From: a virus | Taxonomy: Duplodnaviria; Heunggongvirae; Uroviricota; Caudoviricetes | Reading direction: 5' to 3' (one strand) | DNA: 11,754 nt | Virus record (IMG/VR): IMGVR_UViG_2671181100_000003 | Location: 1 to 11,754 of that record | Shown here: one piece after another, positions 1-11,754 of the stretch | Layout: each line of letters begins with the position of its first letter | How positions within the stretch are numbered: the first letter of the stretch is position 1 | Program-made: the position numbers and the translations under genes | The notes under the pieces: model-generated | The model's database searches: none | What the model saw: only the letters and a program-made list of their open reading frames with translations | What the model was told of the DNA's origin: nothing

Positions 1-179
1 ACACGCCCTTCGTTCTGCCAGAGCCTGAGCCATTTGAAAATAACATTATCATTGACGCCATTTTCACGTGCAATCTGTGCAACACAAGCTCCAGGTTGTG
101 ATGCCAGTTCCACCATACGAAGTTTGAATTCATTCGAATAGTTTTTACGAGGTTCTTTTCGCCAGTCCTGTAATTCCAT
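1..179 (-). CDS. IS-type transposase OrfA-like HTH protein, N-terminal fragment (frame runs off the left window edge)
   Basis: Minus-strand ATG at 179-177 opens a frame that continues to position 1. Translation MELQDWRKEPRKNYSNEFKLRMVELASQPGACVAQIARENGVNDNVIFKWLRLWQNEGRV shows the OrfA-type helix-turn-helix pattern of IS3-family (IS2-like) or IS66-family transposases (EFK..V.....PG..V..IAR..GV......W.....EG). Absent from the ORF track because it is truncated by the window edge. A possible element terminus (minus-strand TGACCGCCG, plus 244-252) lies ~70 bp upstream of the ATG. Confidence 0.4.
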   Translation of the reverse strand, partial: MELQDWRKEPRKNYSNEFKLRMVELASQPGACVAQIARENGVNDNVIFKWLRLWQNEGR

Positions 180-193
180 ACTTAGATGTCCGT

Positions 194-430
194 CTATATC
201 AGATGGGCGTCTAAGTTACCAATTCTCGTCTGATGGCTACATACGGCGGTCAGTTTACGCTTACGTTCAGTTGACACTGGTATTACTTTGTTTTCCTGTG
301 CTGCACATTTAGCTTCAAGCGCATCGAATTTACGCACCAGGTATTCAGCATCTGTTTCATTTACTTTCAGATCTCGCGGTACACATCTCCCACGAAGAAA
401 CCCTTCCATTTCGAAAACATTCATGCGCAT
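194..430 (-). CDS. Small hypothetical protein (76-78 aa) downstream of yfdR-like gene; 3' end possibly altered by the adjacent IS-like element
   Basis: ORF-track frame. Its start overlaps the yfdR-like stop (ATGA at 421-424), suggesting translational coupling with the likely start at 424. No recognisable motif. If the IS-like element ends near 252, the last ~19 codons would be IS-derived. Confidence 0.35.
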   Translation of the reverse strand: MRMNVFEMEGFLRGRCVPRDLKVNETDAEYLVRKFDALEAKCAAQENKVIPVSTERKRKLTAVCSHQTRIGNLDAHLI

Positions 431-957
431 TTGCGTAACTCCGATAACTCGTTAAAGCGTTCCATAAACATCCCGTAGGCATGGCCCGGTGCCAGTGGAA
501 TCACGTTGAACATCTCTGTTGCCGGGATACCTTCCAGTACAGGCCAGAAAGAGCCATCATCAAGCCCGAGATCGCGGCGTTCGGTTGCCAGCATGATGAG
601 ATCGGCATATTTCACGGGCGTACTCATAACTGGGGGTAACCCGTATTTCTCACGGATTACGGCGTCTATTTTTTCTTCCATTTGTTTATAGTCAGGAAGA
701 AGGCGTTTCAGTGGTGCGGGAATGTCCTGGCAATACGCTTCTGTTGCATCATGCATTAACGCTTCAAAAGCAAATTCCTGCGGCACCAGCTGGCTGCAAA
801 GAACCGCATGTTGGGCGACGCTGTAGAAGTGCGAAAGATGACCGGCAAAGCGACAGATATTTGAAAGGGAAACCGCGATATCGTTAATATCGATGTCGTC
901 TTTATTTATCCTGTCATAATAAAAATGCTTCCCGGAAAAAGTTTTAATAAATGACAT
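421..957 (-). CDS. yfdR: HD-domain metal-dependent phosphohydrolase (YfdR-like, putative 5'-deoxynucleotidase)
   Basis: ORF-track frame 421..984 trimmed to the ATG at 957 (MSFIKTF...), which has GGAG ~6 nt upstream, giving 178 aa. HD signature residues are present (AQHAV and LMHDATEAY). Length and sequence match my recollection of the CPS-53 prophage protein YfdR. Confidence 0.75.
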   Translation of the reverse strand: MSFIKTFSGKHFYYDRINKDDIDINDIAVSLSNICRFAGHLSHFYSVAQHAVLCSQLVPQEFAFEALMHDATEAYCQDIPAPLKRLLPDYKQMEEKIDAVIREKYGLPPVMSTPVKYADLIMLATERRDLGLDDGSFWPVLEGIPATEMFNVIPLAPGHAYGMFMERFNELSELRKCA

Positions 958-1052
958 TTTGTTCTCCACGTATATGCGCTGCACCGCGCTGAATTCTGGT
1001 AAAAAGAATCCCTCACCATCCGGCGATTATTGAGTAAATTACGTTTCCATAA

Positions 1053-1070
1053 ATGCCCCCGCAGGGACAT
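1053..1070 (-). terminator. Weak hairpin between yfdQ-like and yfdR-like genes (possible attenuator or partial terminator)
   Basis: Imperfect inverted repeat ATGCCCC/GGGACAT with a 4-nt loop, followed on the minus strand by UUUAUGG. Not a canonical U-tract. Confidence 0.2.
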
Positions 1071-1084
1071 TTGCAGTAATGAAA

Positions 1085-1909
1085 TCAGGCGGTGAAAGTG
1101 CCAATAAAGGTTTCTACTTTGCTGTCCTTGAATTTCTCAACAAGCAGATCACGAAATTCGTTAGCCATTTCTTCCTGCACCGCCTCCAGCTGAATAATGC
1201 GCAGAACCAGTACAGGACGATCGCCAGTGATAATACTGAGGCGTAATTTAAACGGACGTTCTTTCAGACCTTCAAACGGAACGCATTTAAATTCAAATGC
1301 CACTGGCATAATGTCTTTGGTTTTCGCTTCGACAGACTCCATCAGAGAGCGTTTGCCGCTGAAGTCATTGTCTTCAAAATCAGCGGTCTGGTTTGCTTCA
1401 ATCGTGATTTTACGGACAGCCGCAGCCGCTTTTGTTGCCTGAATAGCGTCACCATTAGCATCAAAGCCCACAAGGTAGTCGGCCCAGTCTTCAATCCATT
1501 CTGCTAGTGACTTCTGGGAGTTACGCTCGCCGTTAACAGACAACAGAGCAGAGAACGGTGCTGTCTTTTTCAGTTTGAGTGTGGCGGTGTTATCTGCGTG
1601 ACCTGGTTCATCAATAGTACCTAGGTTAAGCACACTGACGGCACGCATATTATCAGCATCGATAAAGCAGCGGGTGCCTTCATCTGCAAGATCTTTAGAA
1701 TAACGGGTAAAATCATCGATGCTGGCAGTGGAAAGCGCACCACGGAAACGGAAGCGATTTAAATTAAATTTTTCCAGATCATGAATGCGGAAATTCTCAG
1801 GCAATGCCACAGCATCGGCACCAATCTTACTGATAATTTCATTAACACCCTGAGCAGAAATAAGGGCATGGATTTGATTAATTGCGGTTGCGTCTAAGTT
1901 CTGAGACAT
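1085..1909 (-). CDS. yfdQ: DUF2303-family phage early protein (YfdQ-like), function unknown
   Basis: 274-aa ORF with GAGGA 5 nt upstream of the ATG. Length and sequence ([21 protein letters not shown]...) match my recollection of YfdQ from prophage CPS-53. Confidence 0.75.
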
Positions 1910-1974
1910 AATAAGTCCTCACTATATAAAGATATTCAGTGATGAGATAAATAATCAGTTAATTAAAAACGATA

Positions 1975-2337
1975 TTAACGACCTGCTGCGCGGAGTTTTC
2001 CGTCAGGTTCACCGGCAAGAGTCAGCAACTGTCCCTGGTCTTCCTGCAGAATAGTCAGGCGACCACCGCGATTGACATACATCGGCGTTTCGGTGGTGTC
2101 TTCTTCGGAAATTTTCCCGCGGTTAGTCGGGCGAACATATGAGAGTTTGTGTTTGATTTTCACTCGGTTCTCATCAAACGGTTCGATTTCTAGGTTGAGC
2201 GAGACCTTACCTTTGGTTTTCGTGTTCATCACACCGGAAGCGACTTCACTGAGAACTGCGCCGATTTTGGTTTCAAATACGCCGCCGTCCAGCTCCCCGA
2301 TAAATGCCTGCACATCAGTACTGCGTTCGCTAGCCAT
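1975..2337 (-). CDS. yfdP: YfdP-like early protein (120 aa), function unknown
   Basis: ORF-track frame 1975..2655 trimmed to the internal ATG at 2337 (MASERSTDVQ...), which has GAGGAG ~7 nt upstream. The 106 upstream codons are P/G/R-rich read-through of GC-rich non-coding DNA. Confidence 0.65.
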   Translation of the reverse strand: MASERSTDVQAFIGELDGGVFETKIGAVLSEVASGVMNTKTKGKVSLNLEIEPFDENRVKIKHKLSYVRPTNRGKISEEDTTETPMYVNRGGRLTILQEDQGQLLTLAGEPDGKLRAAGR

Positions 2338-2385
2338 TTTGCTGCTCCTCATCATATCGACCCTGCAAGGTCGGTTAGTTTCTCC

Positions 2386-2666
2386 ACAAAACAGAGAAGA
2401 ACACCTGCGGTGACTGCCGCCCGGATGGATTGGGTTATGAGCCCGTCGTCCGGTGATGCTCTTCTCTGTTTTGTAAAAAGGACGGTACCAGCCGGAAGCA
2501 AGGGTACAAGCTGGTACCGCCAAGACTACACACAGCATAAAGTTGTGGTGCCGGGTGCCTCCCGGTGCCTGGCGAAGGTTGCACACCAGGCGGGTGGGTA
2601 TCCACAGAAGGTCGACTGTCAGCCTCAACCTTAACCCGCGTGCGCTGAGCCGCATTCACCACAACG
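2386..2666. other. GC-rich non-coding stretch with nested perfect inverted repeats (candidate structured leader RNA or regulatory element of the leftward early operon)
   Basis: Perfect inverted repeats: 15 bp (2386-2400 ACAAAACAGAGAAGA / 2460-2474), 10 bp (2483-2492 CGGTACCAGC / 2510-2519), 9 bp (2542-2550 GTTGTGGTG / 2657-2665), 7 bp (2575-2581 / 2627-2633), plus short GC hairpins at 2551-2565 and 2567-2591. ORFs open in several frames here encode P/G/R-rich, non-protein-like sequence. Confidence 0.3.
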
Positions 2667-2806
2667 CTAAGGATTCTCTCTGGTTGAAAATACTTAGCTG
2701 TTATGTGCCTGCTTTTAGCCACATCAGGCGAGGTGGACCTAGTTATTCCCCAACAACAAGGATTCGGTTAATCTGGATATCCCCAACAACAATAAGAGTA
2801 TTCAAT

Positions 2807-3322
2807 GTGATCGCTGAATTAACGGCAGCAATGACGGCTATTCGTGAAATCGCCCAGATTGCAAAACTAATGAACGAGGCAAAAACTCAAGCTGAAGTAA
2901 ATGCGGCTATTGGTGAGCTGAACTCAAAGCTTGCGTCTATTCAGCGCGAATGCGTGTCTCTCGTTGAACTGCTGGGCTCTTATCAAGAAATAAATGCTTC
3001 TCTCAAAGCTAAAATTGCAGAATTCGAAAACTTTGAGGCTCAGACGGAAGGCTATATCCTTAACCAACTTGAGTCGGGTACTTTTGTATACTCGAAGGAG
3101 GTAATCGTGAACGGTGACAGCATAACCATGCATCTTTGCCCAAAATGTTTTGGACAAAAGATAGTATCGATACTTCAACCATTCCCGGTTAGCGAAGATG
3201 AGCTTTTTCATAAAAGCAGGTGCCTCCACTGTGAAAATAAGTTTCTGATGAATAAAAATCCAGATTACGTATCGCCTCCATCCATTGAGGAGTTGGCCAG
3301 AAAACTTAACGGCAATCTGTAG
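2807..3322 (+). CDS. Coiled-coil protein with C-terminal CxxC...CxxC zinc-ribbon (accessory gene in the immunity region, function unknown)
   Basis: ORF-track frame 2543..3322 trimmed to GTG 2807 (AAGAG 8 nt upstream) or ATG 2831. The N-terminal ~80 aa are heptad-like and A/E/K/L-rich; the C-terminus carries CPKCF and CLHCENK ~24 aa apart. GC is ~42% against ~52-55% in the replication genes. Convergent with the repressor, own terminator downstream. Confidence 0.55.
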   Translation: MIAELTAAMTAIREIAQIAKLMNEAKTQAEVNAAIGELNSKLASIQRECVSLVELLGSYQEINASLKAKIAEFENFEAQTEGYILNQLESGTFVYSKEVIVNGDSITMHLCPKCFGQKIVSILQPFPVSEDELFHKSRCLHCENKFLMNKNPDYVSPPSIEELARKLNGNL

Positions 3323-3347
3323 ATTGCTACTGTTGTGGATATCCAGA

Positions 3348-3360
3348 TTGTTAAAGAGCG
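3348..3360 (-). promoter_or_regulatory. boxA-like element (minus-strand CGCTCTTTAACAA), candidate nut-type antitermination site
   Basis: Minus-strand 13-mer CGCTCTTTAACAA matches the boxA consensus (rrn boxA TGCTCTTTAACAA; lambda nut boxA CGCTCTTA...) as I recall it. It is flanked by hairpins at 3362-3378 and 3312-3327 and lies downstream of a candidate leftward promoter at 3468-3496. Confidence 0.35.
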
Positions 3361-3361
3361 A

Positions 3362-3384
3362 AGCGTCCTGTAGGGCGCTTTTTT
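3362..3384 (+). terminator. Rho-independent terminator of the coiled-coil/zinc-ribbon gene
   Basis: Stem AGCGTCC / GGGCGCT (7 bp, one G-U) with loop TGTA, followed by TTTTTT at 3379-3384, ~40 nt after the stop codon at 3320-3322. Confidence 0.5.
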
Positions 3385-3465
3385 GTTGCTAACGAATCAT
3401 CCTGGACTTCATATGCCCCAGGCGGCTACTTCGTGGGCGTCCTGCCTGTTCGTTATCTTTGATAT

Positions 3466-3553
3466 AAAATCTAACTTAACTTAGCTATTATGGCAAGAGA
3501 AAACACCAAACTTTTCTTAGTTCGGTGCCTTAGTTAGAGAAGAGAGGTCTTAG
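3466..3553 (-). promoter_or_regulatory. Candidate left operator/promoter (OL/PL-like): leftward promoter flanked by CTTAG half-sites
   Basis: On the minus strand: -35 TTGCCA (plus 3491-3496), 17-bp spacer, -10 TAGATT (plus 3468-3473). CTTAG occurs four times within 3480-3553 (3480, 3516, 3529, 3549), the same pentamer that forms the operators between the repressor and cro. Confidence 0.3.
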
Positions 3554-4176
3554 AGTTCGTATTGAACTCCTTTGACTACACCAATGATAAGGCAATTACC
3601 ATTGATAGGGATGTTGGGATACCGAGGATTTAATGGCACTAAAAACTTTTGAGGGCCATCGATGACTAATTTTTTTACTGTAGCTTCGTTTGTTCCATCA
3701 AGTCGAGCGATGACTATTTTTCCATGACGAGGTTCTGCATCTGGATCTACAATCACTGTTGCGCCTTCTGGTATTGTTGGGAGGCCATTAGGGTTAGTCA
3801 TGGAGTCACCTTTAACCTCTAATGCAAATGAGTTATCACCAACCTTTAATGATGTATCTACCCACTTGTCCACTTCACTAAACACTTCTGCTGCCCTGCA
3901 CTCAGTAAACTGCCCAGCCTGAACCCACGATATTACAGGAACTCTGCGCATGTTTGTGACGAGTTTGCCTTCAAACTCAGCACCATAAAGAATGTAATCT
4001 ATTGACGTATTGAAGAACTTCGCTAATTTCGAAAGTGCCTCCCCACCAGGGGTATTGATGTCTTTCTCCCAGTACCCCACAGCAACGTCGCTTACTCCAC
4101 AAAATTTACCCAATTCTTTCTGGGACGTTCTGGTAACTCTTCTCAGAGCTTTTATACGCTGACCAACCGTTTCCAT
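3550..4176 (-). CDS. Phage repressor, cI/LexA-type (N-terminal HTH + C-terminal S24 autopeptidase domain)
   Basis: 208 aa. N-terminal HTH (QKELGKFCGVSDVAVGYWEKD), candidate Ala-Gly cleavage site (VQAGQF), S24 catalytic motif GDSM and Lys in TVKKL. Divergent from a cro-like gene across an operator region. Confidence 0.9.
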   Translation of the reverse strand: METVGQRIKALRRVTRTSQKELGKFCGVSDVAVGYWEKDINTPGGEALSKLAKFFNTSIDYILYGAEFEGKLVTNMRRVPVISWVQAGQFTECRAAEVFSEVDKWVDTSLKVGDNSFALEVKGDSMTNPNGLPTIPEGATVIVDPDAEPRHGKIVIARLDGTNEATVKKLVIDGPQKFLVPLNPRYPNIPINGNCLIIGVVKGVQYEL

Positions 4177-4195
4177 AGGAGCACCATTTCTTTAA

Positions 4196-4266
4196 TTGCT
4201 AAGTAATCTTAGTTTTTATTGACCAAAGATAGATTTGTAATTAGCATCTAACAAAACTTAGTTTGG
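4196..4266. promoter_or_regulatory. OR-like operator/promoter region between repressor and cro
   Basis: Inverted half-sites CTAAG-TAAT-CTTAG (4199-4212), perfect palindrome AAACTTAGTTT (4254-4264), CTTAGTTT repeated at 4208 and 4257. Rightward promoter candidate -35 TTGACC (4219-4224), 17-bp spacer, -10 TAGCAT (4242-4247), upstream of the cro ATG at 4274. Confidence 0.5.
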
Positions 4267-4273
4267 AGAGCGT

Positions 4274-4474
4274 ATGACAACTGACGATATCGAAAGCTAC
4301 TTCGGCAGTATTGAGAAAGTTGCTGCTTTTTTCGGCATAACAACTGAAGCCGTTTATCAGTGGCGAAACCGTCCGGGCCAGTTAATTCCAAAAGGACGTG
4401 CAGCAGAAGCTGCATATAGAACTTGCGGACGGTTGCCATTTAAACCTGAGCTTTATGAAAAATCTAATGGATAA
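4274..4474 (+). CDS. cro: Cro-type repressor (P22 Cro-like)
   Basis: 66 aa; DIESYFGSIEKVAAFFGITTEAVYQW resembles P22 Cro (DVIDHFGTQRAVAKALGISDAAVSQW). Divergent from the repressor; GGAGAG upstream. Confidence 0.8.
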   Translation: MTTDDIESYFGSIEKVAAFFGITTEAVYQWRNRPGQLIPKGRAAEAAYRTCGRLPFKPELYEKSNG

Positions 4475-5063
4475 ATCGATTAACAGAAACCACAGAACGA
4501 TGAGGCTAACCGTGGGTAAGCATCACTGGAAAGTAGAAAAACAGCCTGAGTGGTACGTGAAAGCTGTCAGAAAAACTATCGCAGCGTTGCCGGGTGGTTA
4601 CGCTGAAGCTGCTGACTGGCTGGATGTAACAGAGAACGCATTATTTAACCGCCTTCGTGCCGATGGCGATCAGATTTTCCCGCTGGGATGGGCAATGATT
4701 TTGCAACGTGCTGGTGGAACTCACTTCATTGCTGACGCTGTGGCGCAGTCTGCAAATGGCGTCTTTGTGTCTCTTCCTGATGTCGAGGATGTGGACAACG
4801 CCGATATCAACCAACGCCTGCTGGAAGTCATTGAACAGATCGGCAGTTATTCAAAACAGATTCGTTCAGCAATTGAAGACGGTGTAGTGGAACCGCATGA
4901 GAAGACAGCAATTAACGATGAGCTGTACCTCTCAATTTCGAAGCTGCAGGAGCATGCAGCACTGGTCTACAAAATCTTTTGCGTTTCAGAAAGTAGTGAC
5001 GCCCGCGAGTGTGCAGCTCCGGGCGCCGTGGCGTGTCGTGACTGTGGAGAAACTAACGCATGA
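4455..5063 (+). CDS. CII-position early regulatory protein (CII/CP76-like by position; start uncertain)
   Basis: ORF-track frame 4398..5063. The GTG at 4398 has no usable SD spacing and overlaps cro by 77 nt; ATG 4455 or ATG 4467 (overlapping the cro stop) are likelier starts. About 200 aa, first gene after cro. Family assignment is by position and vague recollection only. Confidence 0.45.
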
Positions 5064-5398
5064 ACAGTTTAACAACACACTACCGTCGCTCGCAACTGAT
5101 TGCGCTTCCTGTACCGGGTGGAAAAGCGAAGGTGGAGTATTGCTATGCAGTAAATGTACCAGGTGACAGGGAAATTGTAACCCACAGCTTTGCAGAGTGG
5201 GCTGTGGGTGATTTCAACCGGCAGAAGGAGACAGTCCTTTGCGACAAGTTAACCGCTGGTTCAAAGATCACTACGGAGTGCCCGTCAGAGTCATTCGTTG
5301 GGAGCCGGAAACACAACGTGTTATCTACCTCCGCGAAGGCTATGAGCATGAGTGCTTCAGCCCGCTCGAACAGTTTCGTCGTAAATTCAGGGAAATAG
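5060..5398 (+). CDS. Hypothetical protein (112 aa as called); only the N-terminal ~55 aa look protein-like, possible frameshifted or overlapping gene
   Basis: ATGA overlap with the preceding stop (5060-5063). The N-terminal part ([52 protein letters not shown]) looks coding; the C-terminal ~50 aa are S/A-rich low complexity and overlap a better-looking frame (see 5239..5418). Confidence 0.3.
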
Positions 5399-5418
5399 AG
5401 GTCGGTCATGAGCACTAA
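5239..5418 (+). CDS. Small hypothetical protein (59 aa) from a TTG start; alternatively the C-terminal half of a frameshifted gene starting at 5060
   Basis: Not in the ORF track (no ATG). AAGGAG at 5225-5230, 8 nt before TTG 5239. Translation [59 protein letters not shown] is compositionally protein-like. Stop at 5416-5418 overlaps the O-like start. Confidence 0.3.
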
Positions 5419-6364
5419 ATTAACCGGCTATGTATGGGATGGTTGCGCTGCATCAGGCATGAAATTATCCAGCGTGGCAATTATGGCCCGCCTGGCTGAT
5501 TTCAGTAATGACGAAGGTGTGTGCTGGCCATCAATTGAAACCATTGCCCGCCAGATTGGCGCGGGGATGAGTACCGTCAGAACGGCTATCGCACGGCTGG
5601 AAGCAGAAGGCTGGTTAACGCGTAGGGCGCGTCGCCAGGGTAACCGCAATGCGTCGAATGTTTATCAGCTTAACGTTGCGAAGCTTCAGGCAGCGGCATT
5701 TTCTCAACTGTCAGATTCTGACCCGTCAAAATCTGACGCATCAAAATCTGACGCATCAAAATCTGACCCGTCAAAATTTGATGCGTCGAAATCTGGCAAA
5801 AAAGCGGGTTTTCACCCGTCAGAATCTGGTGGGGATCCGTCAGTAAAATCAAAACATGATCCGTCAGATAAAAAAACTTCTCGTCCGGACGCTTCGCAAC
5901 CGGACACGCAGACGGCTGAACAGGATTTTTTAACTCGCCATCCTGATGCGGTTGTATTCAGCCCTAAAAAGCGCCAGTGGGGGACGCAGGATGATTTGAC
6001 CTGCGCACAGTGGCTCTGGAAAAAAATCATCGCCCTGTACGAGCATGCCGCCGAATGTGACGGCGAGGTGGTTCGTCCCAAAGAACCGAACTGGACAGCC
6101 TGGGCAAACGAAATTCGCCTGATGTGTGTGCAGGATGGTCGTACTCATAAACAAATCTGCGAGATGTACAGCCGCGTCAGTCGCGATCCGTTCTGGTGCC
6201 GTAACGTGCTCAGCCCGTCGAAGCTGCGGGAAAAATGGGATGAGCTTTCCCTGCGCTTATCGCCGTCCGTCAGCACGTACACCGAAAAACGCGAAGACCC
6301 GTACTTCAAAGCCAGTTACGACAACGTGGACTACAGCCAGATCCCGGCAGGATTCAGGGGGTGA
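5408..6364 (+). CDS. Replication initiator, lambda O-like (N-terminal HTH DNA-binding domain, repeat linker, C-terminal domain)
   Basis: 318 aa, GAGGT 5 nt upstream. N-terminal HTH (SSVAIMARLADFSNDEGVCWPSIETIARQIGAGMSTVRTAIARLEAEGWL) is typical of phage replication initiators. An internal tandem-repeat block encodes (S/P)KSDA pentapeptides, like the iteron-encoded linker of lambda O. Position after cro/CII. Confidence 0.7.
   Translation: MSTKLTGYVWDGCAASGMKLSSVAIMARLADFSNDEGVCWPSIETIARQIGAGMSTVRTAIARLEAEGWLTRRARRQGNRNASNVYQLNVAKLQAAAFSQLSDSDPSKSDASKSDASKSDPSKFDASKSGKKAGFHPSESGGDPSVKSKHDPSDKKTSRPDASQPDTQTAEQDFLTRHPDAVVFSPKKRQWGTQDDLTCAQWLWKKIIALYEHAAECDGEVVRPKEPNWTAWANEIRLMCVQDGRTHKQICEMYSRVSRDPFWCRNVLSPSKLREKWDELSLRLSPSVSTYTEKREDPYFKASYDNVDYSQIPAGFRG
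5711..5800. repeat. Six tandem 15-bp repeats inside the O-like gene: candidate replication-origin iterons
   Basis: Units TCAGATTCTGACCCG / TCAAAATCTGACGCA (x2) / TCAAAATCTGACCCG / TCAAAATTTGATGCG / TCGAAATCTGGCAAA. Each junction forms the dyad CGTCA-AAATC-TGACG. Degenerate copies and an A-rich stretch follow to ~5880. Confidence 0.5.
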
Positions 6365-6366
6365 TC

Positions 6367-6855
6367 ATGAGTCTTTTGAATGACGTTCAGAAATTCATTG
6401 AAGCCCATCCGGGGTGTACTTCCGGAGACATTGCGGATGCTTTTGCAGGTTACTCACGACAGCGCGTTCTGCAGTCAGCAAGCAAGTTACGTCAGAGTGG
6501 GCGTGTGGCTCACCGTTGTGAAGGGGATACACGCAGACATTTCCCGCGGCTGACTGAGATACCGCAGGAGCCGGAACCGCAACCAGTTCGTGAATCCAGA
6601 CCTGTGCGCAATTTCTATGTCGGCACTAACGATCCCCGGGTGATTTTGTGCCTGACCCGCCAGGCGGAAGAACTGGAGTCCAGGGGCTTATACCGTCGTG
6701 CTGCAACGGTGTGGATGGCGGCATTCCGTGAAAGCCACTCCCAGCAAGAGCGAAACAATTTTCTTGCGCGTCGTGAGCGGTGTTTACGGAAAAGCAGCAA
6801 GCGCGCTGTATCGGGTGAAGAGTGGTATCTGTCAGGGAATTACGTGGGGGCTTAA
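6367..6855 (+). CDS. Putative transcriptional regulator: N-terminal winged-helix-like region plus PerC-like C-terminal motif
   Basis: ORF-track frame 6361..6855 trimmed to ATG 6367 (GGGGG 5 nt upstream, overlapping the O-like stop). The C-terminal motif AEELESRGLYRRAATVWMAAF resembles the PerC/Pch activator signature as I recall it. The size (162-164 aa) matches my recollection of YfdN. Confidence 0.55.
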   Translation: MSLLNDVQKFIEAHPGCTSGDIADAFAGYSRQRVLQSASKLRQSGRVAHRCEGDTRRHFPRLTEIPQEPEPQPVRESRPVRNFYVGTNDPRVILCLTRQAEELESRGLYRRAATVWMAAFRESHSQQERNNFLARRERCLRKSSKRAVSGEEWYLSGNYVGA

Positions 6856-7181
6856 TGACGACGTTAACTCAATGCCAGCAGCAGGTGCTGGATATGCTGA
6901 TTTCTTATCAGAAAGAACGTGGCTTCCCGCCAACCAATCAGGAGGTGGCAACCATGCTGGGATACCGTTCAGTGAATGCAGCGGTGGAGCATCTTCGCGC
7001 ACTGGAGAAAAAAGGCGTCATCACGATAAAGCGTGGCGTGGCCCGGGGCATCACGCTTCATACCGCGGTGAAGGACGACGACAGCGAGGCGGCCGGGATT
7101 ATCCGCGCACTGCTTGCTGGTGAGGAAAACGCCAGGCTGCGTGCAGCCCACTGGTTACATGAGAGGGGCCTGAAAGTATGA
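6855..7181 (+). CDS. LexA DNA-binding-domain-like protein lacking the S24 peptidase domain
   Basis: ORF-track frame trimmed to ATG 6855 (TAATG overlap with the upstream stop; GGGGG upstream). LTQCQQQVLDMLISYQKERGFPPTNQEVATMLGYRSVNAAVEHLRALEKKGVITIKRGVARGITL aligns by eye with the LexA N-terminus ([65 protein letters not shown]). The 108-aa product stops before any protease domain. Confidence 0.75.
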   Translation: MTTLTQCQQQVLDMLISYQKERGFPPTNQEVATMLGYRSVNAAVEHLRALEKKGVITIKRGVARGITLHTAVKDDDSEAAGIIRALLAGEENARLRAAHWLHERGLKV

Positions 7182-7567
7182 AGCTGATCCTGCCTTTTCC
7201 GCCCAGCGTGAACACGCACTGGCGACACCCCAACAAAGGGGCGTTTGCTGGTAAGAGCCTGATAAGCGCGGCGGGGCGAAAATTCCAGAGCGCGGCGTGC
7301 GCAGCAATAGTTGAGCAGTTACGTCGTCTGCCAAAACCAACGTCGGCACCTGCTTCAGTGGAGATCGTGTTGTTTCCTCCGGATAACCGGATCCGCGATC
7401 TGGACAACTATAACAAGGCGCTGTTTGACGCCCTGACCCACGCGGGTGTGTGGGAAGACGACAGTCAGGTGAAAAGAATGCTGGTGGAGTGGGGACCGGT
7501 TATCCCGGAAGGGAAGGTCGAGATCACTATCAGTAAGTACGAGAAACCGGCGGGTGCAGCCGCCTGA
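7178..7567 (+). CDS. rusA: RusA-family Holliday junction resolvase
   Basis: 129 aa with ATGA overlap to the upstream gene. Motifs LPFPPSVN, DLDNYNKALFDALT and GVWEDDSQV match the RusA family. Confidence 0.85.
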   Translation: MKLILPFPPSVNTHWRHPNKGAFAGKSLISAAGRKFQSAACAAIVEQLRRLPKPTSAPASVEIVLFPPDNRIRDLDNYNKALFDALTHAGVWEDDSQVKRMLVEWGPVIPEGKVEITISKYEKPAGAAA

Positions 7568-7586
7568 TTAAGAGGAGAAACGAAGT

Positions 7587-8384
7587 ATGAATAATCTGAT
7601 GGTTATTGATGGTATTGAAGTTCGTCGTGATGCTTATGGGCGTTACAGCCTGAACGATCTGCACAGGGCTGCCGGTTCTCTGGATAAACATAAGCCTGCA
7701 TTCTGGCTCCGCAATGAGCAAACTGAACGTTTAATAAGCGAGTTGCAGATTTGCAACTCGGTCAATATAGAGCCAGTTAACGTTATTCGTGGAGGAAATA
7801 ACCAGGGGACGTATGTCTGCAAAGAACTGGTGTATGCCTATGCAATGTGGATCAGCCCGTCATTCCATCTGAAGGTGATCCGTACTTTCGATATGGTAAC
7901 CAGCACACCGGAAAAATTATCCGGGCAGGCTGCTGACAAGATGCAGGCTGGCGTGATCCTGCTGGACTTTATGCGCCGGGAGTTAAACCTGTCTAACTCT
8001 TCAGTGCTTGGTGCCTGTCAGAAACTCCAGGAGGCTGTTGGCTTACCGAATCTGGCACCGCGCTATGCCATTGATGCTCCTGCTGACGCGCCTGATGGCT
8101 CAAGCCGCCCCACGCTGTCACTGAGTGCACTGCTGAAGCAGTATGGTATCCGCCTGACAGCTAATCAGGCATATCACCAGATGGTGAAGCTGGGGATCGT
8201 CGAGCAGCGCGAACGATACAGCCGTACCGCGATTAACAACATCAAAAAATTCTGGTCACTGACAGCGAAAGGCTGCATGTTCGGCAAGAACATCACCAGT
8301 CCCGCAAATCCGCGCGAGACGCAGCCGCATTTCTTCGAATCCCGATTCCCTGAGCTGTTAAAGCTGCTCGATACCGTTCATTGA
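7587..8384 (+). CDS. KilA-N domain protein (N-terminal KilA-N DNA-binding domain, uncharacterised C-terminal domain)
   Basis: 265 aa with strong RBS AAGAGGAGAAA. N-terminal YSLNDLHRAAG...KPAFWLRNEQTERLI...IRGGNNQGTYVCKELVYAYAMWISPSFHLKVIRTFD fits the KilA-N fold. Confidence 0.8.
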   Translation: MNNLMVIDGIEVRRDAYGRYSLNDLHRAAGSLDKHKPAFWLRNEQTERLISELQICNSVNIEPVNVIRGGNNQGTYVCKELVYAYAMWISPSFHLKVIRTFDMVTSTPEKLSGQAADKMQAGVILLDFMRRELNLSNSSVLGACQKLQEAVGLPNLAPRYAIDAPADAPDGSSRPTLSLSALLKQYGIRLTANQAYHQMVKLGIVEQRERYSRTAINNIKKFWSLTAKGCMFGKNITSPANPRETQPHFFESRFPELLKLLDTVH

Positions 8385-8385
8385 G

Positions 8386-9381
8386 GTGACCGTGAGAGCG
8401 CTACTGACCCCTGAAATTGCCCCGCGTATGGGGATCGTATTGTTCAGGCCAGGTTCAGAGCTGATGCCCCTGTTTATGCAGGGCCGTGTTCTGCTGGAGC
8501 CTGAGCCGGAGCGTTATTCATCTTTCGCCAGTGGTGCCGTTCCTGCGGCATCACAACCGCTGGCGGATGATCCTGCCGTTCTGGCCGTGTTCCGTAATGA
8601 GGCAGTGATTCGTCGTGCTGGTGGGGTGGAATGTCTTGAAAGCTGGTTACTTCGTGAAAAAGGCTGCCAGTGGCCTCATTCCGACTGGCACAGCGAGAAC
8701 ATGACCACAATGCGACACGCGCCGGGCGCAATCCGTCTGTGCTGGCACTGCGATAACCAGCTTCGCGATCAGTTCACGGAACGGCTGGAATCAATGGCAA
8801 CGGATAACTGTGCCCGCTGGGTGTTGTCTGTTGTGCGTCGGGATCTCGGTTTTGATGATAGTCACGTTGTGACAATGCCGGAACTGTGCTGGTGGCTGAT
8901 TCGTAATGATCTGGCAGATGCCTTACCGGAAAGTGCAGCCCGTAAGGCACTGAGATTACCGAAGCCTGTTGTGCCGTCTGTCACCCGGGAAAGTGACCTT
9001 GTGCCTTCGGTTCCTGCCACCAGCATCATCCAGGATAAGGCGAAAAAGGTGCTGGCGCTGAAAGTGGATCCGGAGTCGCCGGAGTCTTTTATGTTACGCC
9101 CAAAACGCCGCCGCTGGGTTAATGAAAAGTACACGCGCTGGGTTAAGACACAGCCGTGTGCATGTTGTGGAAAGCCTGCTGATGATCCCCACCACCTGAT
9201 AGGTCACGGTCAGGGTGGAATGGGTACAAAAGCGCATGACCTCTTTGTGTTGCCTTTGTGCAGAAAGCATCACGACGAGCTGCATGCGGATACCGTGGCA
9301 TTTGAAGAGAAGTATGGCTCCCAACTGGAGCTGATATTTCGTTTTATCGATCGCGCGCTGGCGATTGGTGTGTTGGCCTGA
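8386..9381 (+). CDS. DUF968-like nin-region protein with C-terminal Cys/His-rich (HNH-like) motif
   Basis: 331 aa from GTG 8386 (start uncertain; internal ATG at 8428). C-terminal CACCGKPADDPHHLIGHG...LCRKHHDELH suggests a zinc-binding nuclease-like motif. Family assignment from memory of YdfU-like prophage proteins. Confidence 0.55.
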   Translation: MTVRALLTPEIAPRMGIVLFRPGSELMPLFMQGRVLLEPEPERYSSFASGAVPAASQPLADDPAVLAVFRNEAVIRRAGGVECLESWLLREKGCQWPHSDWHSENMTTMRHAPGAIRLCWHCDNQLRDQFTERLESMATDNCARWVLSVVRRDLGFDDSHVVTMPELCWWLIRNDLADALPESAARKALRLPKPVVPSVTRESDLVPSVPATSIIQDKAKKVLALKVDPESPESFMLRPKRRRWVNEKYTRWVKTQPCACCGKPADDPHHLIGHGQGGMGTKAHDLFVLPLCRKHHDELHADTVAFEEKYGSQLELIFRFIDRALAIGVLA

Positions 9382-9398
9382 TTTGGTGGAGAAAGTTG

Positions 9399-9764
9399 AT
9401 GCGTGATATTCAGATGGTTCTGGAGCGTTGGGGAGCATGGGCGGCGAGTGATAGTTCTGGAGTAGACTATTCGCCTATAGCTGCTGGGTTTAAGGGGCTT
9501 CTTCCCTACACAAGCAAAACACGTCAGGCTTGTTCAGATAGTGATGCATTAATTATTGAAGGTTGTCTTGCTCGTCTAAAGCAAAAAAAGCCAGATGAGC
9601 ACTCGCTGCTTGTGGCACATTATTTATACAGAATATCCAAGCGTAAGATTGCAAAGGTGCGTGGAAAGGATGAAAAATTGGTACGCATAGAAATACAACT
9701 AGCCGAAGGATTTATTGATGGTTGCCTTTCAATGTTGGATGTTAACCTTGAAATGGACGCTTAG
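9399..9764 (+). CDS. Late-gene antiterminator Q (small Q family)
   Basis: ORF-track frame 9396..9764 trimmed to ATG 9399 (GGAG 7 nt upstream). The N-terminal motif DIQMVLERWGAWAA...DYSPIAAGFKGLLP matches my recollection of the small antitermination-Q family. Last gene of the rightward early operon. Confidence 0.7.
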   Translation: MRDIQMVLERWGAWAASDSSGVDYSPIAAGFKGLLPYTSKTRQACSDSDALIIEGCLARLKQKKPDEHSLLVAHYLYRISKRKIAKVRGKDEKLVRIEIQLAEGFIDGCLSMLDVNLEMDA

Positions 9765-9770
9765 GGTTGC

Positions 9771-9800
9771 ACAGGTTGGCCCCATATGAGGCCAACCTGT
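9771..9800. other. Perfect 11-bp inverted repeat (hairpin) between convergent Q and membrane-protein genes
   Basis: ACAGGTTGGCC (9771-9781) / GGCCAACCTGT (9790-9800) with an 8-nt loop. It starts 7 nt after the Q stop and abuts the membrane-protein stop codon (9800-9802). No adjacent U-tract on either strand, so not a canonical intrinsic terminator. Confidence 0.4.
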
Positions 9801-10261
9801 CACAAGTGGGGGAAGATTTTTCGTAACACTAACCAACACCTTCCGAAGGTATATAGCGAAATTATAAGGGAGGATAAGCCTAACAGTATGAATAGGAAAT
9901 CAATAGGTTTGCCCGCAACAATAACATCATCTGGTAGAAACATCGCTATCAATGGAAATATACATGCGACGATGAGAGTTAACCCTGTTGAAAGTAATCG
10001 ATTTACCAGAGTTGGTAACACGTTGTTTTGCTTAAGGGCATTAATTGCTCCTTCCTTATCGCTGTTTGCACTACTAAATATAGATATTGCAGCCAGAACA
10101 AAACCAAACAGGATGCCTGATATAGTCGAGAGCACCCCCGCTGTTGTGAGTACGTCAGCATGCTTCATCGGTTTAAACAGTTTTGTCGCTGCATAGGTCA
10201 ACAGAATCCAGAGGACGCATTTCCAGAGAAAAGTGGCTAATTCTCTCATTGTGTCCTCCAT
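9800..10261 (-). CDS. Small integral membrane protein, four predicted TM helices (second gene of the two-gene cassette)
   Basis: 153-aa ORF; the likely start is the second ATG at 10249 (GGAGG 5 nt upstream), giving 149 aa. Four hydrophobic segments (~residues 10-28, 37-63, 85-109, 120-140) with short loops and no soluble domain. Separated by ~20 nt from the upstream 313-aa gene. Confidence 0.6.
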   Translation of the reverse strand: MEDTMRELATFLWKCVLWILLTYAATKLFKPMKHADVLTTAGVLSTISGILFGFVLAAISIFSSANSDKEGAINALKQNNVLPTLVNRLLSTGLTLIVACIFPLIAMFLPDDVIVAGKPIDFLFILLGLSSLIISLYTFGRCWLVLRKIFPHL

Positions 10262-10270
10262 GCTTGGTTA

Positions 10271-11212
10271 TTAGTCTCTGCTAGCGAGCTCATACTGTGC
10301 AAGATAGTTCGCGTTATCAATTTTAGCAGATATCATCGCCGTTCTGATATCAGAATCGGATGGATAACCGCTTTTGACAATGATTGTCTTTGTACTGACC
10401 AATACTTGGTCAAGTAGACTTTTGGGCGTTCTATTGGATGGCTCTGTTACATCAATTTTTTTAATTTTTAGACCTCCAGAACCTTTTGGAAAAAGTTCAA
10501 GTAGTTCCTTAATAGCATCGGTGACAGAAGTTTTTAGATAGTTAAAACCTTGTTTTTTCGGGCGAATCCGACCTCGCATATTTAATCTTAGATGCGACCC
10601 GCCCATACCAACAACCATGTCAATAATTTCATTAGCTAAAGGGTTTTTAATCTTATAATTAGCTTTGTTAAAGTTTCTTGGAGCAGCAACTATAAGATCG
10701 AAACTACGTAGGATATTTCCGTCCTCAAGCAGTTCCTTCATGCTCTCTTGTTTCCAAATGGCTTCAAAAGTGACGCTTTTTAAATCAGTTTTGTTATACA
10801 AAATGAATGCCAGATCATTTACTTTGGGCCCTATATGGTTGAGGGTCATAGCTAATAAATCCGTTTCGTAGTAATAGATAAAATATGTTCTTTCAACTAC
10901 AGAATCTTTATCATTTAAAGGAATTGTTCTCTCACTACCTGTAGCATCCTCGATGAACGGTAGTAGGCATTCCCTTCTCCACGATACGTAACCAAAGTAA
11001 CATTGCAGTGTGGTATCTTTTTGAAGAATAACTAACTTTAACCCTCGATTTGGGGTGTCTGTTGTGTAAGTTATTGGAAAAGTTACAGTATCTGCTGTGG
11101 TCATTTGCTCAAAGGCTAGTTTTGCAGCAGATGTGCCATCTTTTTTGCTTCCATTACCAGTGAAAAAACCAACTCTCACTCGCCTAGTTTTATTCTTATT
11201 TTCTGTACTCAT
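10271..11212 (-). CDS. Uncharacterised 313-aa soluble protein (first gene of the two-gene cassette)
   Basis: Long ORF with no recognisable catalytic motif by eye (no Walker A, no clear nucleotidyltransferase GS...DxD). K/N/T-rich, GC ~35-42%. Opposite in orientation to all flanking phage genes. Confidence 0.65.
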   Translation of the reverse strand: MSTENKNKTRRVRVGFFTGNGSKKDGTSAAKLAFEQMTTADTVTFPITYTTDTPNRGLKLVILQKDTTLQCYFGYVSWRRECLLPFIEDATGSERTIPLNDKDSVVERTYFIYYYETDLLAMTLNHIGPKVNDLAFILYNKTDLKSVTFEAIWKQESMKELLEDGNILRSFDLIVAAPRNFNKANYKIKNPLANEIIDMVVGMGGSHLRLNMRGRIRPKKQGFNYLKTSVTDAIKELLELFPKGSGGLKIKKIDVTEPSNRTPKSLLDQVLVSTKTIIVKSGYPSDSDIRTAMISAKIDNANYLAQYELASRD

Positions 11213-11227
11213 TATCGATCCGAAATA

Positions 11228-11257
11228 ATTTTAGCAACCGTGTGAAAAATACAACAA
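11228..11257 (-). promoter_or_regulatory. Candidate promoter of the two-gene cassette
   Basis: Minus-strand -10 TAAAAT (plus 11228-11233) with -35 TTGTTG (plus 11252-11257, 18-bp spacer) or TTGTAT (15-bp spacer). Leader to the ATG would be under 15 nt and the RBS is weak, so confidence is low. Confidence 0.2.
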
Positions 11258-11334
11258 AAAAAAGAGGAAATCATTAGCGCGGTCCGCAAAAAACATTGTA
11301 ATCTGTTAAGAGTGGTTACTTCGCCACACAACTT

Positions 11335-11359
11335 AAACCCGCCGCTGAGCGGTTTTTTT
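11335..11359 (+). terminator. Hairpin plus T7 tract (intrinsic terminator-like) on the plus strand upstream of the small ORF at 11481
   Basis: AAACCCGCCGCTGAGCGGTTTTTTT: stem CCGC/GCGG (extendable with a bulge) then seven T. Would terminate plus-strand transcripts that have crossed the cassette antisense; could be a tR'-like site. Confidence 0.35.
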
Positions 11360-11409
11360 GTACCTGTAAACCTGGTGCAGTACAGTAAACACGCTGGTGG
11401 TCGTGAATA

Positions 11410-11436
11410 CTGGCTTTTTATCTTGCTGGCTTTTTA
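11410..11436. repeat. Direct repeat CTGGCTTTTTA x2 (16-bp period) upstream of the 11481 ORF
   Basis: Exact 11-bp copies at 11410-11420 and 11426-11436; candidate regulator binding sites or part of a late promoter/qut region. Confidence 0.3.
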
Positions 11437-11480
11437 GACAAGAGTTATTGGTATGTCATGTTAACCAGAAGGGAAAAAAC

Positions 11481-11684
11481 ATGCTAAAACAGCAAGATAT
11501 GACAGAAACCGCCGCCGCAGTCCTTCATTTCTTACCTGCTGACAAGTGGGTAACGCCACGCATGATGACGAGAACTACCGGAGTAAGCGAAGCCCGGTGC
11601 CAGTTAATACTGACTCAGTTAGTTCTGGCGGGTCTGGCGAAGGATAACGGCGGGTACGGGAATAAATTCAGACGCTGCCAGTAA
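11481..11684 (+). CDS. Small hypothetical protein (67 aa), possibly winged-helix DNA-binding
   Basis: ORF-track frame 11397..11684 trimmed to ATG 11481 (AAGGGA 6 nt upstream). Translation MLKQQDMTETAAAVLHFLPADKWVTPRMMTRTTGVSEARCQLILTQLVLAGLAKDNGG looks like a small winged-helix regulator. Confidence 0.45.
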   Translation: MLKQQDMTETAAAVLHFLPADKWVTPRMMTRTTGVSEARCQLILTQLVLAGLAKDNGGYGNKFRRCQ

Positions 11685-11754
11685 TGGCGGTTTCCTGCTG
11701 TGAAAATGGGCGGCTGGTGGGTGTTGGTAGCACCTGCCAGCCATTCGCTCATGC
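11684..11754 (+). CDS. Possible start of a further gene (partial, runs off the right edge)
   Basis: ATG at 11684 overlaps the preceding stop (TAATG); the frame stays open to the window end (MAVSCCENGRLVGVGSTCQPFAH...). Too short to judge. Confidence 0.2.
   Translation, partial: MAVSCCENGRLVGVGSTCQPFAH

Follow-up and report, generated by a model that had tools for sequence, protein, structure and literature searches.

The LexA repressor of Escherichia coli binds SOS boxes (CTGT-N8-ACAG) through a winged-helix domain that is joined to an S24 peptidase/dimerisation domain. LexA fragment 1-84 and the non-cleavable lexA3 (Ind-) repressor have this DNA-binding domain without a working cleavage module, and both are able to repress SOS genes. 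The N-terminal fragment retains some SOS-box binding and repression, and its removal by ClpXP is needed for SOS induction (PMC10584840), and lexA3 blocks the induction of Gifsy prophages (PMC3121763). A phage-encoded example, expressed early in the lytic cycle, is gp6 of the Bacillus tectivirus GIL01, a truncated LexA homologue without the cleavage domain. Its target is a non-LexA palindrome (it binds GaCACAnnTGTGaC); the site overlaps the -35 element of the late promoter P3, which gp6 activates. A further layout is that of the Gifsy prophages, with a terminator, a LexA-box promoter, dinI and a small open reading frame (ORF), which Lemire et al. (2011) found experimentally to be LexA-controlled and needed for the induction of Gifsy prophages with uncleaved repressors (PMC3121763). 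Here we describe a LexA-like gene at positions 6855..7181 of a stretch of 11,754 nucleotides from a virus of the Caudoviricetes (IMG/VR record IMGVR_UViG_2671181100_000003, positions 1 to 11,754), which we refer to as the window. Our leading, although tentative, reading from the sequence comparisons is that the gene product stands in for LexA and is insensitive to RecA.

The window covers the early region of a lambdoid prophage, and the LexA-like gene lies in its nin-like part, between the replication genes and Q. Positions 265-11754 were 99.96% identical to a prophage of E. coli strain 1283 that is integrated next to tRNA-Thr and proA, and RefSeq annotates the identical coding sequence there. 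The ORF, this RefSeq entry and the gene order agreed with the first-pass annotation, which had placed a LexA-type ORF of 108 amino acids in a nin-like region here.

The protein has the LexA DNA-binding fold and lacks the S24 domain

The gene and the parts of its DNA-binding domain are as follows.

6855..7181, + strand: complete coding sequence of the LexA-like protein, phrog_362, 108 amino acids plus stop (from the ORF list and the sequence)
6855..7049, + strand: LexA-type winged helix-turn-helix domain, residues 1-65 (PF01726, Foldseek and the ratio of non-synonymous to synonymous substitution rates, dN/dS)
6972..7010, + strand: predicted recognition helix, residues 40-52, VNAAVEHLRALEK (helix of the model, aligned to LexA; with S39 the motif reads S-V-N-A-A-V-E-H)
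7020..7058, + strand: beta-hairpin wing, residues 56-68, including R64-G65-I66 (model strands 56-58 and 66-68)

We observed that residues 1-65 matched the whole of the LexA_DNA_bind profile PF01726 (positions 1-65 of 65) with an E-value of 2.9e-19 and 69 bits, the Pfam gathering cut-off being 23.7. In a phmmer search against the PDB, the best sequence matches were E. coli LexA structures (E about 1e-15). An AlphaFold2 monomer model built on 28 family sequences reached a predicted local distance difference test score (pLDDT) of 84, and had helices at residues 6-22, 28-35 and 40-52 followed by a beta hairpin at 56-68. The top Foldseek match of this model was DNA-bound E. coli LexA (PDB 3JSO; see also 1LEA), with a root-mean-square deviation of 1.0 A over 68 residues and 50% identity.

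The residues of LexA helix 3 that contact bases are S39, N41, A42, E44 and E45 (PMC3091678). The window protein keeps S39, N41, A42 and E45, and has valine instead of glutamate at position 44. The RGI motif of the wing (R64, G65, I66) is invariant across the family.

The likeness to LexA ends with this domain. A Pfam search found no Peptidase_S24 match in the protein, although the CI repressor of the window matched S24 in the same run. The protein ends at residue 108 and has neither Ser119/Lys156 nor a conserved Ala-Gly site; in place of the S24 peptidase/dimerisation domain of LexA there is a 33-residue two-helix tail. As the S24 domain is absent, the protein is not expected to undergo RecA-stimulated self-cleavage. 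The first-pass annotation had assigned the first ~65 residues to the LexA winged-helix domain, had noted the missing autopeptidase and the resulting loss of self-cleavage, and had named superposition on the LexA domain as a check. The profile matches bear out the first two points, and the model answers the third.

A conserved two-helix tail is under purifying selection

Two further parts make up the rest of the protein.

7059..7076, + strand: variable acidic linker, residues 69-74, predicted to be disordered (pLDDT below 50 for residues 71-75)
7077..7178, + strand: conserved C-terminal two-helix tail, residues 75-108, a candidate dimerisation or partner-binding module (model helices, conservation and dN/dS)

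The linker differs in length and sequence between homologues. The tail is formed by predicted helices at residues 75-88 and 93-102 (pLDDT about 90), and the pattern EAxGIIRALLAGEENARLRAxHWLHERGVKV (residues 76-108) was kept in all close homologues. It was still recognisable at about 40-50% identity in both clades of the family (described below), in relatives from Enterobacter, Cedecea, Klebsiella, Kosakonia, Citrobacter and Salmonella. In a six-sequence family alignment reaching down to 43% identity (A4), L86, L87, A97 and L101 were invariant. The tail alone matched positions 74-106 of phrog_362 with an E-value of 2.3e-11.

We further estimated selection from a set of 50 alleles, setting the window allele against the other distinct ones. 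The dN/dS was 0.07 for the whole gene, which is strong purifying selection. By module, the ratio was about 0 in the DNA-binding domain, where 3 non-synonymous differences stood against 200 synonymous ones, and 0.16 in the tail. Judged by these patterns, the protein is a working two-module protein and its last 33 residues are no leftover. If other winged-helix repressors are a guide, the simplest view of the tail is as an oligomerisation module that would stand in for the S24 domain. This also sets the protein apart from LexA fragment 1-84 and lexA3, which are host-gene products or mutants; the phage protein ends in ...ERGLKV rather than in the LexA 1-84 degron, and its tail is selected.

HMMER gave a weak alignment of LLAGEE in the tail (containing A88-G89) to the cleavage region VAAGEP of LexA, with low posterior probability. 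We evaluated this Ala-Gly pair as a possible pseudo-substrate or trans-cleavage site. The pair sits in a predicted helix of the model and is not conserved, being replaced by ANEE in Citrobacter variants and by AEEPG or DDQPG in the sister clade. As it is not kept across the family, a conserved pseudo-substrate was excluded.

The family is widespread and distinct from GIL01 gp6

The full-length protein matched phrog_362, a PHROGs family labelled "transcriptional repressor", over residues 1-108 (profile positions 1-106 of 106, E 1.2e-58), and the sister-clade protein P0180 matched the same family with an E-value of 3e-41. The repressor label is an annotation only. Near-identical genes were present in 51 phage records, including mEp460 (gp46), SfV (orf42), SfII, SfIV, cdtI, 2H10 and Stx2a/Stx2c phages, and in 2233 of 5426 complete E. 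coli genomes (41%). The full-length architecture was kept at 40% identity in at least seven enterobacterial genera.

GIL01 gp6 resembles the LexA-like protein in being a phage-encoded LexA DNA-binding domain without the cleavage domain. It differs in having only 66 amino acids and no tail, its best PHROG was phrog_3502 (1.8e-21) rather than phrog_362, and BLASTP found no alignment between the two proteins at E <= 100. GIL01 is moreover a Gram-positive tectivirus whose lysogeny is kept by host LexA. Late control in the window phage is by Q. BFVD holds many further short phage proteins with the LexA DNA-binding fold.

Existing annotations of the gene read "LexA family transcriptional regulator", "LexA DNA binding domain protein" and "transcriptional repressor". 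A survey of Stx phages lists a pham with pfam01726 alone and makes no remark on function; apart from this listing, a full-text literature search found no study of the enterobacterial family. It is already known that the gene is common and annotated, and by sequence the family is distinct from LexA proper and from GIL01 gp6. New here are the conserved two-helix tail, the strong purifying selection, the linkage to RusA, the two regulatory contexts and the SOS box just past the window.

The gene lies in the early right operon, next to RusA

The operon around the gene is made up of the following features.

3550-4176, - strand: CI repressor of the window (S24 domain at E 1.8e-27, Pfam)
4219..4247, + strand: PR-like promoter of the early right operon that contains the LexA-like gene (TTGACC-17-TAGCAT upstream of cro)
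6361..6855, + strand: upstream PerC/YfdN-like gene (PF06069 at E 9.2e-10); its stop overlaps the LexA-like start (TAATG)
7178..7567, + strand: RusA Holliday-junction resolvase gene (PF05866 at E 8.6e-15); its ATG overlaps the LexA-like TGA (ATGA)

On the + strand, the PR-like promoter is followed by cro, a CII-like gene, DUF4222, an O-like replication gene, the PerC/YfdN-like gene, the LexA-like gene, rusA, KilA-N, DUF968/HNH and Q; a profile search confirmed that the Q antiterminator is present for the late genes. Since its start and stop codons overlap those of the neighbours, and no consensus promoter was found directly upstream of 6855, we take the LexA-like gene to be transcribed delayed-early, within the PR operon. 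This position, and the lack of an SOS box of its own in the window copy, are further differences from lexA of E. coli.

We observed that the RusA start lay at most 1.2 kb downstream in 98 of 100 carrier loci, and that RusA was directly adjacent in 95, mostly with overlapping stop and start codons. Two lineages, in Kosakonia and Enterobacter, have the LexA-like gene without RusA. In relatives at 40-50% identity the order was [DNA methyltransferase] - LexA-like - RusA - [KilA-N or Rha/ANT] - DUF968 - antiterminator, and a DNA methyltransferase gene stood directly 5' of the LexA-like gene in mEp460 and several diverged relatives.

The junction at 6855 varies between phages. In mEp460, SfV and most relatives the PerC-like gene is separated from the LexA-like gene by a dam-type methyltransferase gene. 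The latter is absent from the window, where the PerC-like and LexA-like genes are fused stop-to-start, and phage 2H10 likewise has no dam-type gene there.

As the gene follows an O-like gene, we also evaluated it as a substitute for a missing helicase loader. This was rejected, since relatives with a lambda-P or DnaC-type loader carry the gene too.

Two clades place the gene in different regulatory contexts

In clade A, to which the window belongs, a minus-strand S24-type CI lay upstream in 70 of 74 loci and the LexA-like gene was inside the PR operon. In clade B (Klebsiella, Enterobacter, Cedecea, Salmonella) an S24 repressor was found in none of 66 loci. The clade B layout consists of a rho-independent terminator, a -35 element and a -10 element overlapping an SOS box, then mostly a DinI homologue, an ORF of 75-100 amino acids (phrog_1813) and the LexA-like gene. 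About 67-69 of 73 loci had a canonical SOS box in the 1.5 kb upstream of the gene, and 24 distinct box sequences were seen. When 62 distinct clade B promoter regions were compared, conservation of at least 90% was limited to the -35 element and the LexA box, the sole conserved operator; a non-LexA palindrome conserved among these regions was not found.

Clade B is like the Gifsy dinI-antirepressor operon in its terminator, LexA-box promoter, dinI and small ORF, and in a phage repressor without S24. Gifsy-2 differs in having no LexA-like gene, and the window's clade differs from Gifsy in that its LexA-like gene is not in such an operon. By its position beside dinI, as in SPN3UB, the phrog_1813 ORF is a candidate antirepressor; it had no detectable similarity to Gifsy-2 GftA. 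We also evaluated whether the LexA-like gene is irsA, the third gene of the Salmonella Gifsy LexA operon. This identity was rejected, since the Gifsy-2 irsA homologue is an unrelated protein of 200 amino acids.

Some clade B loci (L303, L309, L311, L315, L319 and L324) contain two SOS-box promoters, the additional one lying about 0.5 kb 5' of the first and about 1.1 kb upstream of the LexA-like gene. An ORF starting MGFPSP behind this second box resembled UmuD', but it gave no match to the S24 profile and was set aside. In an Enterobacter prophage (L005 5863-7232, - strand), a gene for an RNase-A-like toxin (PF18431) with a faintly CdiI_2 immunity-like neighbour lies just upstream of the SOS-box operon.

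A strong SOS box lies just beyond the window

The first-pass annotation had reported no canonical CTGT-N8-ACAG box in the window, and exact, one-mismatch and position-specific scoring matrix (PSSM) searches agreed with this. No exact site was present, and sites with one mismatch numbered 8 against 4.2 +/- 2.1 expected. The best PSSM score was 9.7 against a shuffle median maximum of 9.5, and real boxes score at least 13. As controls, the experimentally defined LexA box of Gifsy-2 scored 24.3 and the SPN3UB box upstream of dinI scored 26.4. Palindromes of CTGT and ACAG at other spacings were scarce, and most of them lay within genes. The window copy of the LexA-like gene, inside the PR operon, has no SOS box for autoregulation, whereas clade B copies are preceded by a box.

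The same prophage does contain a strong SOS box, TACTGTAAAAATAAACAGTG, with a PSSM score of 22.3, located 89 nt past the window end (window coordinates 11843-11862; L012 24989-25008). It begins 8 nt into the ORF of a late-region N6/N4 methyltransferase. The same placement is seen in mEp460 and in Kosakonia, Enterobacter and Salmonella-type phages; the residues encoded at the box change from TVKIN to TVNLN in one Kosakonia phage, yet CTGT/ACAG and the A+T-rich spacer are kept. As the box is kept where the residues change, selection appears to act on the DNA. In IMG/VR, 39 contigs combine this box with 6.5 kb or more of sequence upstream of it; the LexA-like gene is present in 30 of them, at a distance of 2.7-6.4 kb upstream of the box. 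When clade A loci carrying the LexA-like gene were counted (the clade B counts above likewise cover carrier loci), at least one box scoring 17 or more was present in 47 of 103.

Two other elements were seen in connection with these boxes. Near-perfect SOS boxes (24-27) occur inside S24-type cI genes of the mEp460 immunity type (L001 5690-5709, which is mEp460 cI; L007 2836-2855; and L095), about 165-230 nt from the cI start; the window cI has no such box. A conserved, structured non-coding element of about 110-120 nt occupies window positions 11707-11754 and continues beyond the right end (L012 24853-24960), just upstream of the N6/N4 methyltransferase gene. Its minimum free energy is -57.8 kcal/mol (z -3.6 against shuffles), and it has no Rfam match. 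Between its copies in E. coli, Kosakonia, Enterobacter and Salmonella-type phages we observed a compensatory change from TTCGCT..AGCGAA to TTAGCT..AGCTAA.

Weighing a proposed RecA-insensitive LexA surrogate against other explanations

The comparative evidence favours a non-cleavable SOS-box binder over a dedicated phage regulator, and we consider it quite possible, if short of an even chance, that the LexA-like protein is a RecA-insensitive LexA surrogate. This builds on the fold, the conserved residues, the purifying selection, the operon position and the SOS-box association that we observed; the DNA specificity, the dimerisation, the repression and the benefit to the phage are what we infer.

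In such a surrogate, a LexA-type winged helix with most of the LexA base-contacting residues would be joined by a flexible acidic linker to a two-helix tail that replaces S24 as the dimerisation module. With delayed-early expression from PR, the protein would be produced only after induction or infection, while or after host LexA is cleaved. It would then bind CTGT-N8-ACAG operators and re-establish repression there. The LexA fragment itself represses until it is degraded, so a stable, dimerising LexA-type fragment made by a phage would be expected to repress LexA operators despite activated RecA (RecA*). It might act on the methyltransferase SOS box, on the SOS regulon of the host, and on antirepressor or colicin genes that are under LexA control in co-resident elements. 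In clade B the circuit would be one of negative feedback, in which LexA cleavage switches on the operon of dinI and the small ORF, and the LexA-like product of that operon switches it off. In the window phage the protein would act in trans during lytic growth.

A bolder proposal, which we regard as doubtful, is that the protein serves as a stable, RecA-proof replacement of LexA. In clade B phages, taken to be induced through a LexA-controlled antirepressor, it would make the SOS signal a self-limiting pulse by switching off its own operon of dinI and the small ORF. In phages with a cleavable CI, such as that of the window, it would silence the host SOS response together with LexA-dependent rival prophages and colicin plasmids during the lytic phase. 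The SOS response would then be actively rewired by a gene found in about 40% of E. coli genomes.

Several observations weigh against the surrogate reading. Glutamate is found at helix-3 position 44 in no family member, and at position 45 most sister-clade proteins have Leu, Thr, Ser or Ala (NAVLLH, NAVALH). Because position 45 varies and position 44 is never Glu, the sister-clade proteins at least may have a shifted DNA specificity. GIL01 gp6, the only characterised phage protein consisting of a LexA DNA-binding domain that we found, is an activator with a non-LexA site, and our literature search found no binding or reporter data for any family member. The methyltransferase box occurs without the LexA-like gene in 9 of the 39 contigs, so host LexA alone may use it. 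No strong SOS box was near the gene in 29 of 51 near-identical loci with full flanks and in 5 of 12 independent diverged lineages. As about half of the carriers have no strong box near the gene, a phage-borne operator is frequent but not obligatory. The association of box and gene is also confounded by common descent and close linkage.

The strongest of the rivals is that the protein is a dedicated phage transcription factor with its own non-SOS operator, activating or repressing a phage promoter as gp6 does on P3. Variation at helix-3 positions 44 and 45, the half of carriers without a nearby SOS box, the window without any, and the repressor label of phrog_362 (by annotation only) all point this way. 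We nevertheless hold this explanation to be unlikely. A conserved non-LexA palindrome was not found in the 62 sister-clade promoter regions, whose sole conserved operator was the LexA box, and the window protein keeps S39, N41, A42 and E45. The late genes are already under the Q antiterminator, and gp6 belongs to another family, with no BLASTP similarity and no tail.

Improbable, in our estimate, is a role as DNA-binding accessory of a methyltransferase/LexA-like/RusA/DUF968-HNH module, in which the protein would target or time RusA, or the gene would couple rusA translation. The near-constant position of RusA with overlapping codons, the preceding methyltransferase gene and the gene order kept at 40-50% identity would suit such a role, but the two lineages in Kosakonia and Enterobacter do without RusA, and RusA is widespread without the LexA-like gene, for example in DLP12 and phage 82. 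The protein sequence gives no hint of branched-DNA binding, the strong selection on the LexA recognition helix suits sequence-specific duplex binding instead, and synteny in mosaic phages may reflect inheritance as a block.

We give still less credence to the possibility that the tail tunes SOS by protein contacts with host LexA, RecA* or RNA polymerase, like GIL01 gp7 or DinI, with the winged helix-turn-helix as a DNA tether. The exposed hydrophobic set L86, L87, A97 and L101, a tail that is not confidently packed on the DNA-binding domain (predicted template modelling score 0.57), the co-transcription of the sister-clade gene with a DinI homologue and the weak alignment of LLAGEE to VAAGEP are in line with it; the Ala-Gly pair is, however, not conserved, and the alignment there is of low posterior probability.

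Finally, a functionless, decaying fragment of a captured lexA, suggested by the resemblance to the first half of lexA and by the many truncated or fused variants in databases, is hardly credible, since a dN/dS of 0.07 over 50 alleles excludes a dead remnant, and the full-length architecture persists at 40% identity across at least seven genera and in 41% of complete E. coli genomes.

Other elements of the window and of related prophages

Between Q and the late region, window positions 9800-11212 (- strand) hold a two-gene cassette coding for a 313-amino-acid protein and a predicted membrane protein of 153 amino acids. A 30-bp palindrome at 9771-9800, resembling a bidirectional terminator, flanks it. 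The 313-amino-acid protein belonged to no Pfam or PADLOC family. The cassette may be a moron or a defence cassette; membership of a defence system was set aside as the PADLOC match was negligible. In a sister-clade Salmonella prophage (L009 11794-13390, - strand), AcrVA2-like and Cas1-domain genes lie between Q and the lysis genes.

In the O-like replication gene, positions 5717-5795 consist of 5.3 tandem copies of the 15-bp unit TCTGACCCGTCAAAA, which encode SDASK repeats and are probably the iterons of the origin of replication.

Implications for lambdoid phages and their hosts

If the protein does not bind SOS boxes, it would be an ordinary small regulator of the nin region. If it does bind them, about two in five sequenced E. 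coli strains would harbour a gene able to override the DNA-damage switch of the host during prophage induction, and the carriers concerned would include Stx2 phages and the serotype-converting phages of Shigella. Such an action would affect how strongly toxin phages are induced by SOS-triggering antibiotics, the rivalry of co-resident prophages and the mutagenesis that follows damage. The protein would also be a natural case of a repressor DNA-binding domain that has been fitted with a minimal oligomerisation module.

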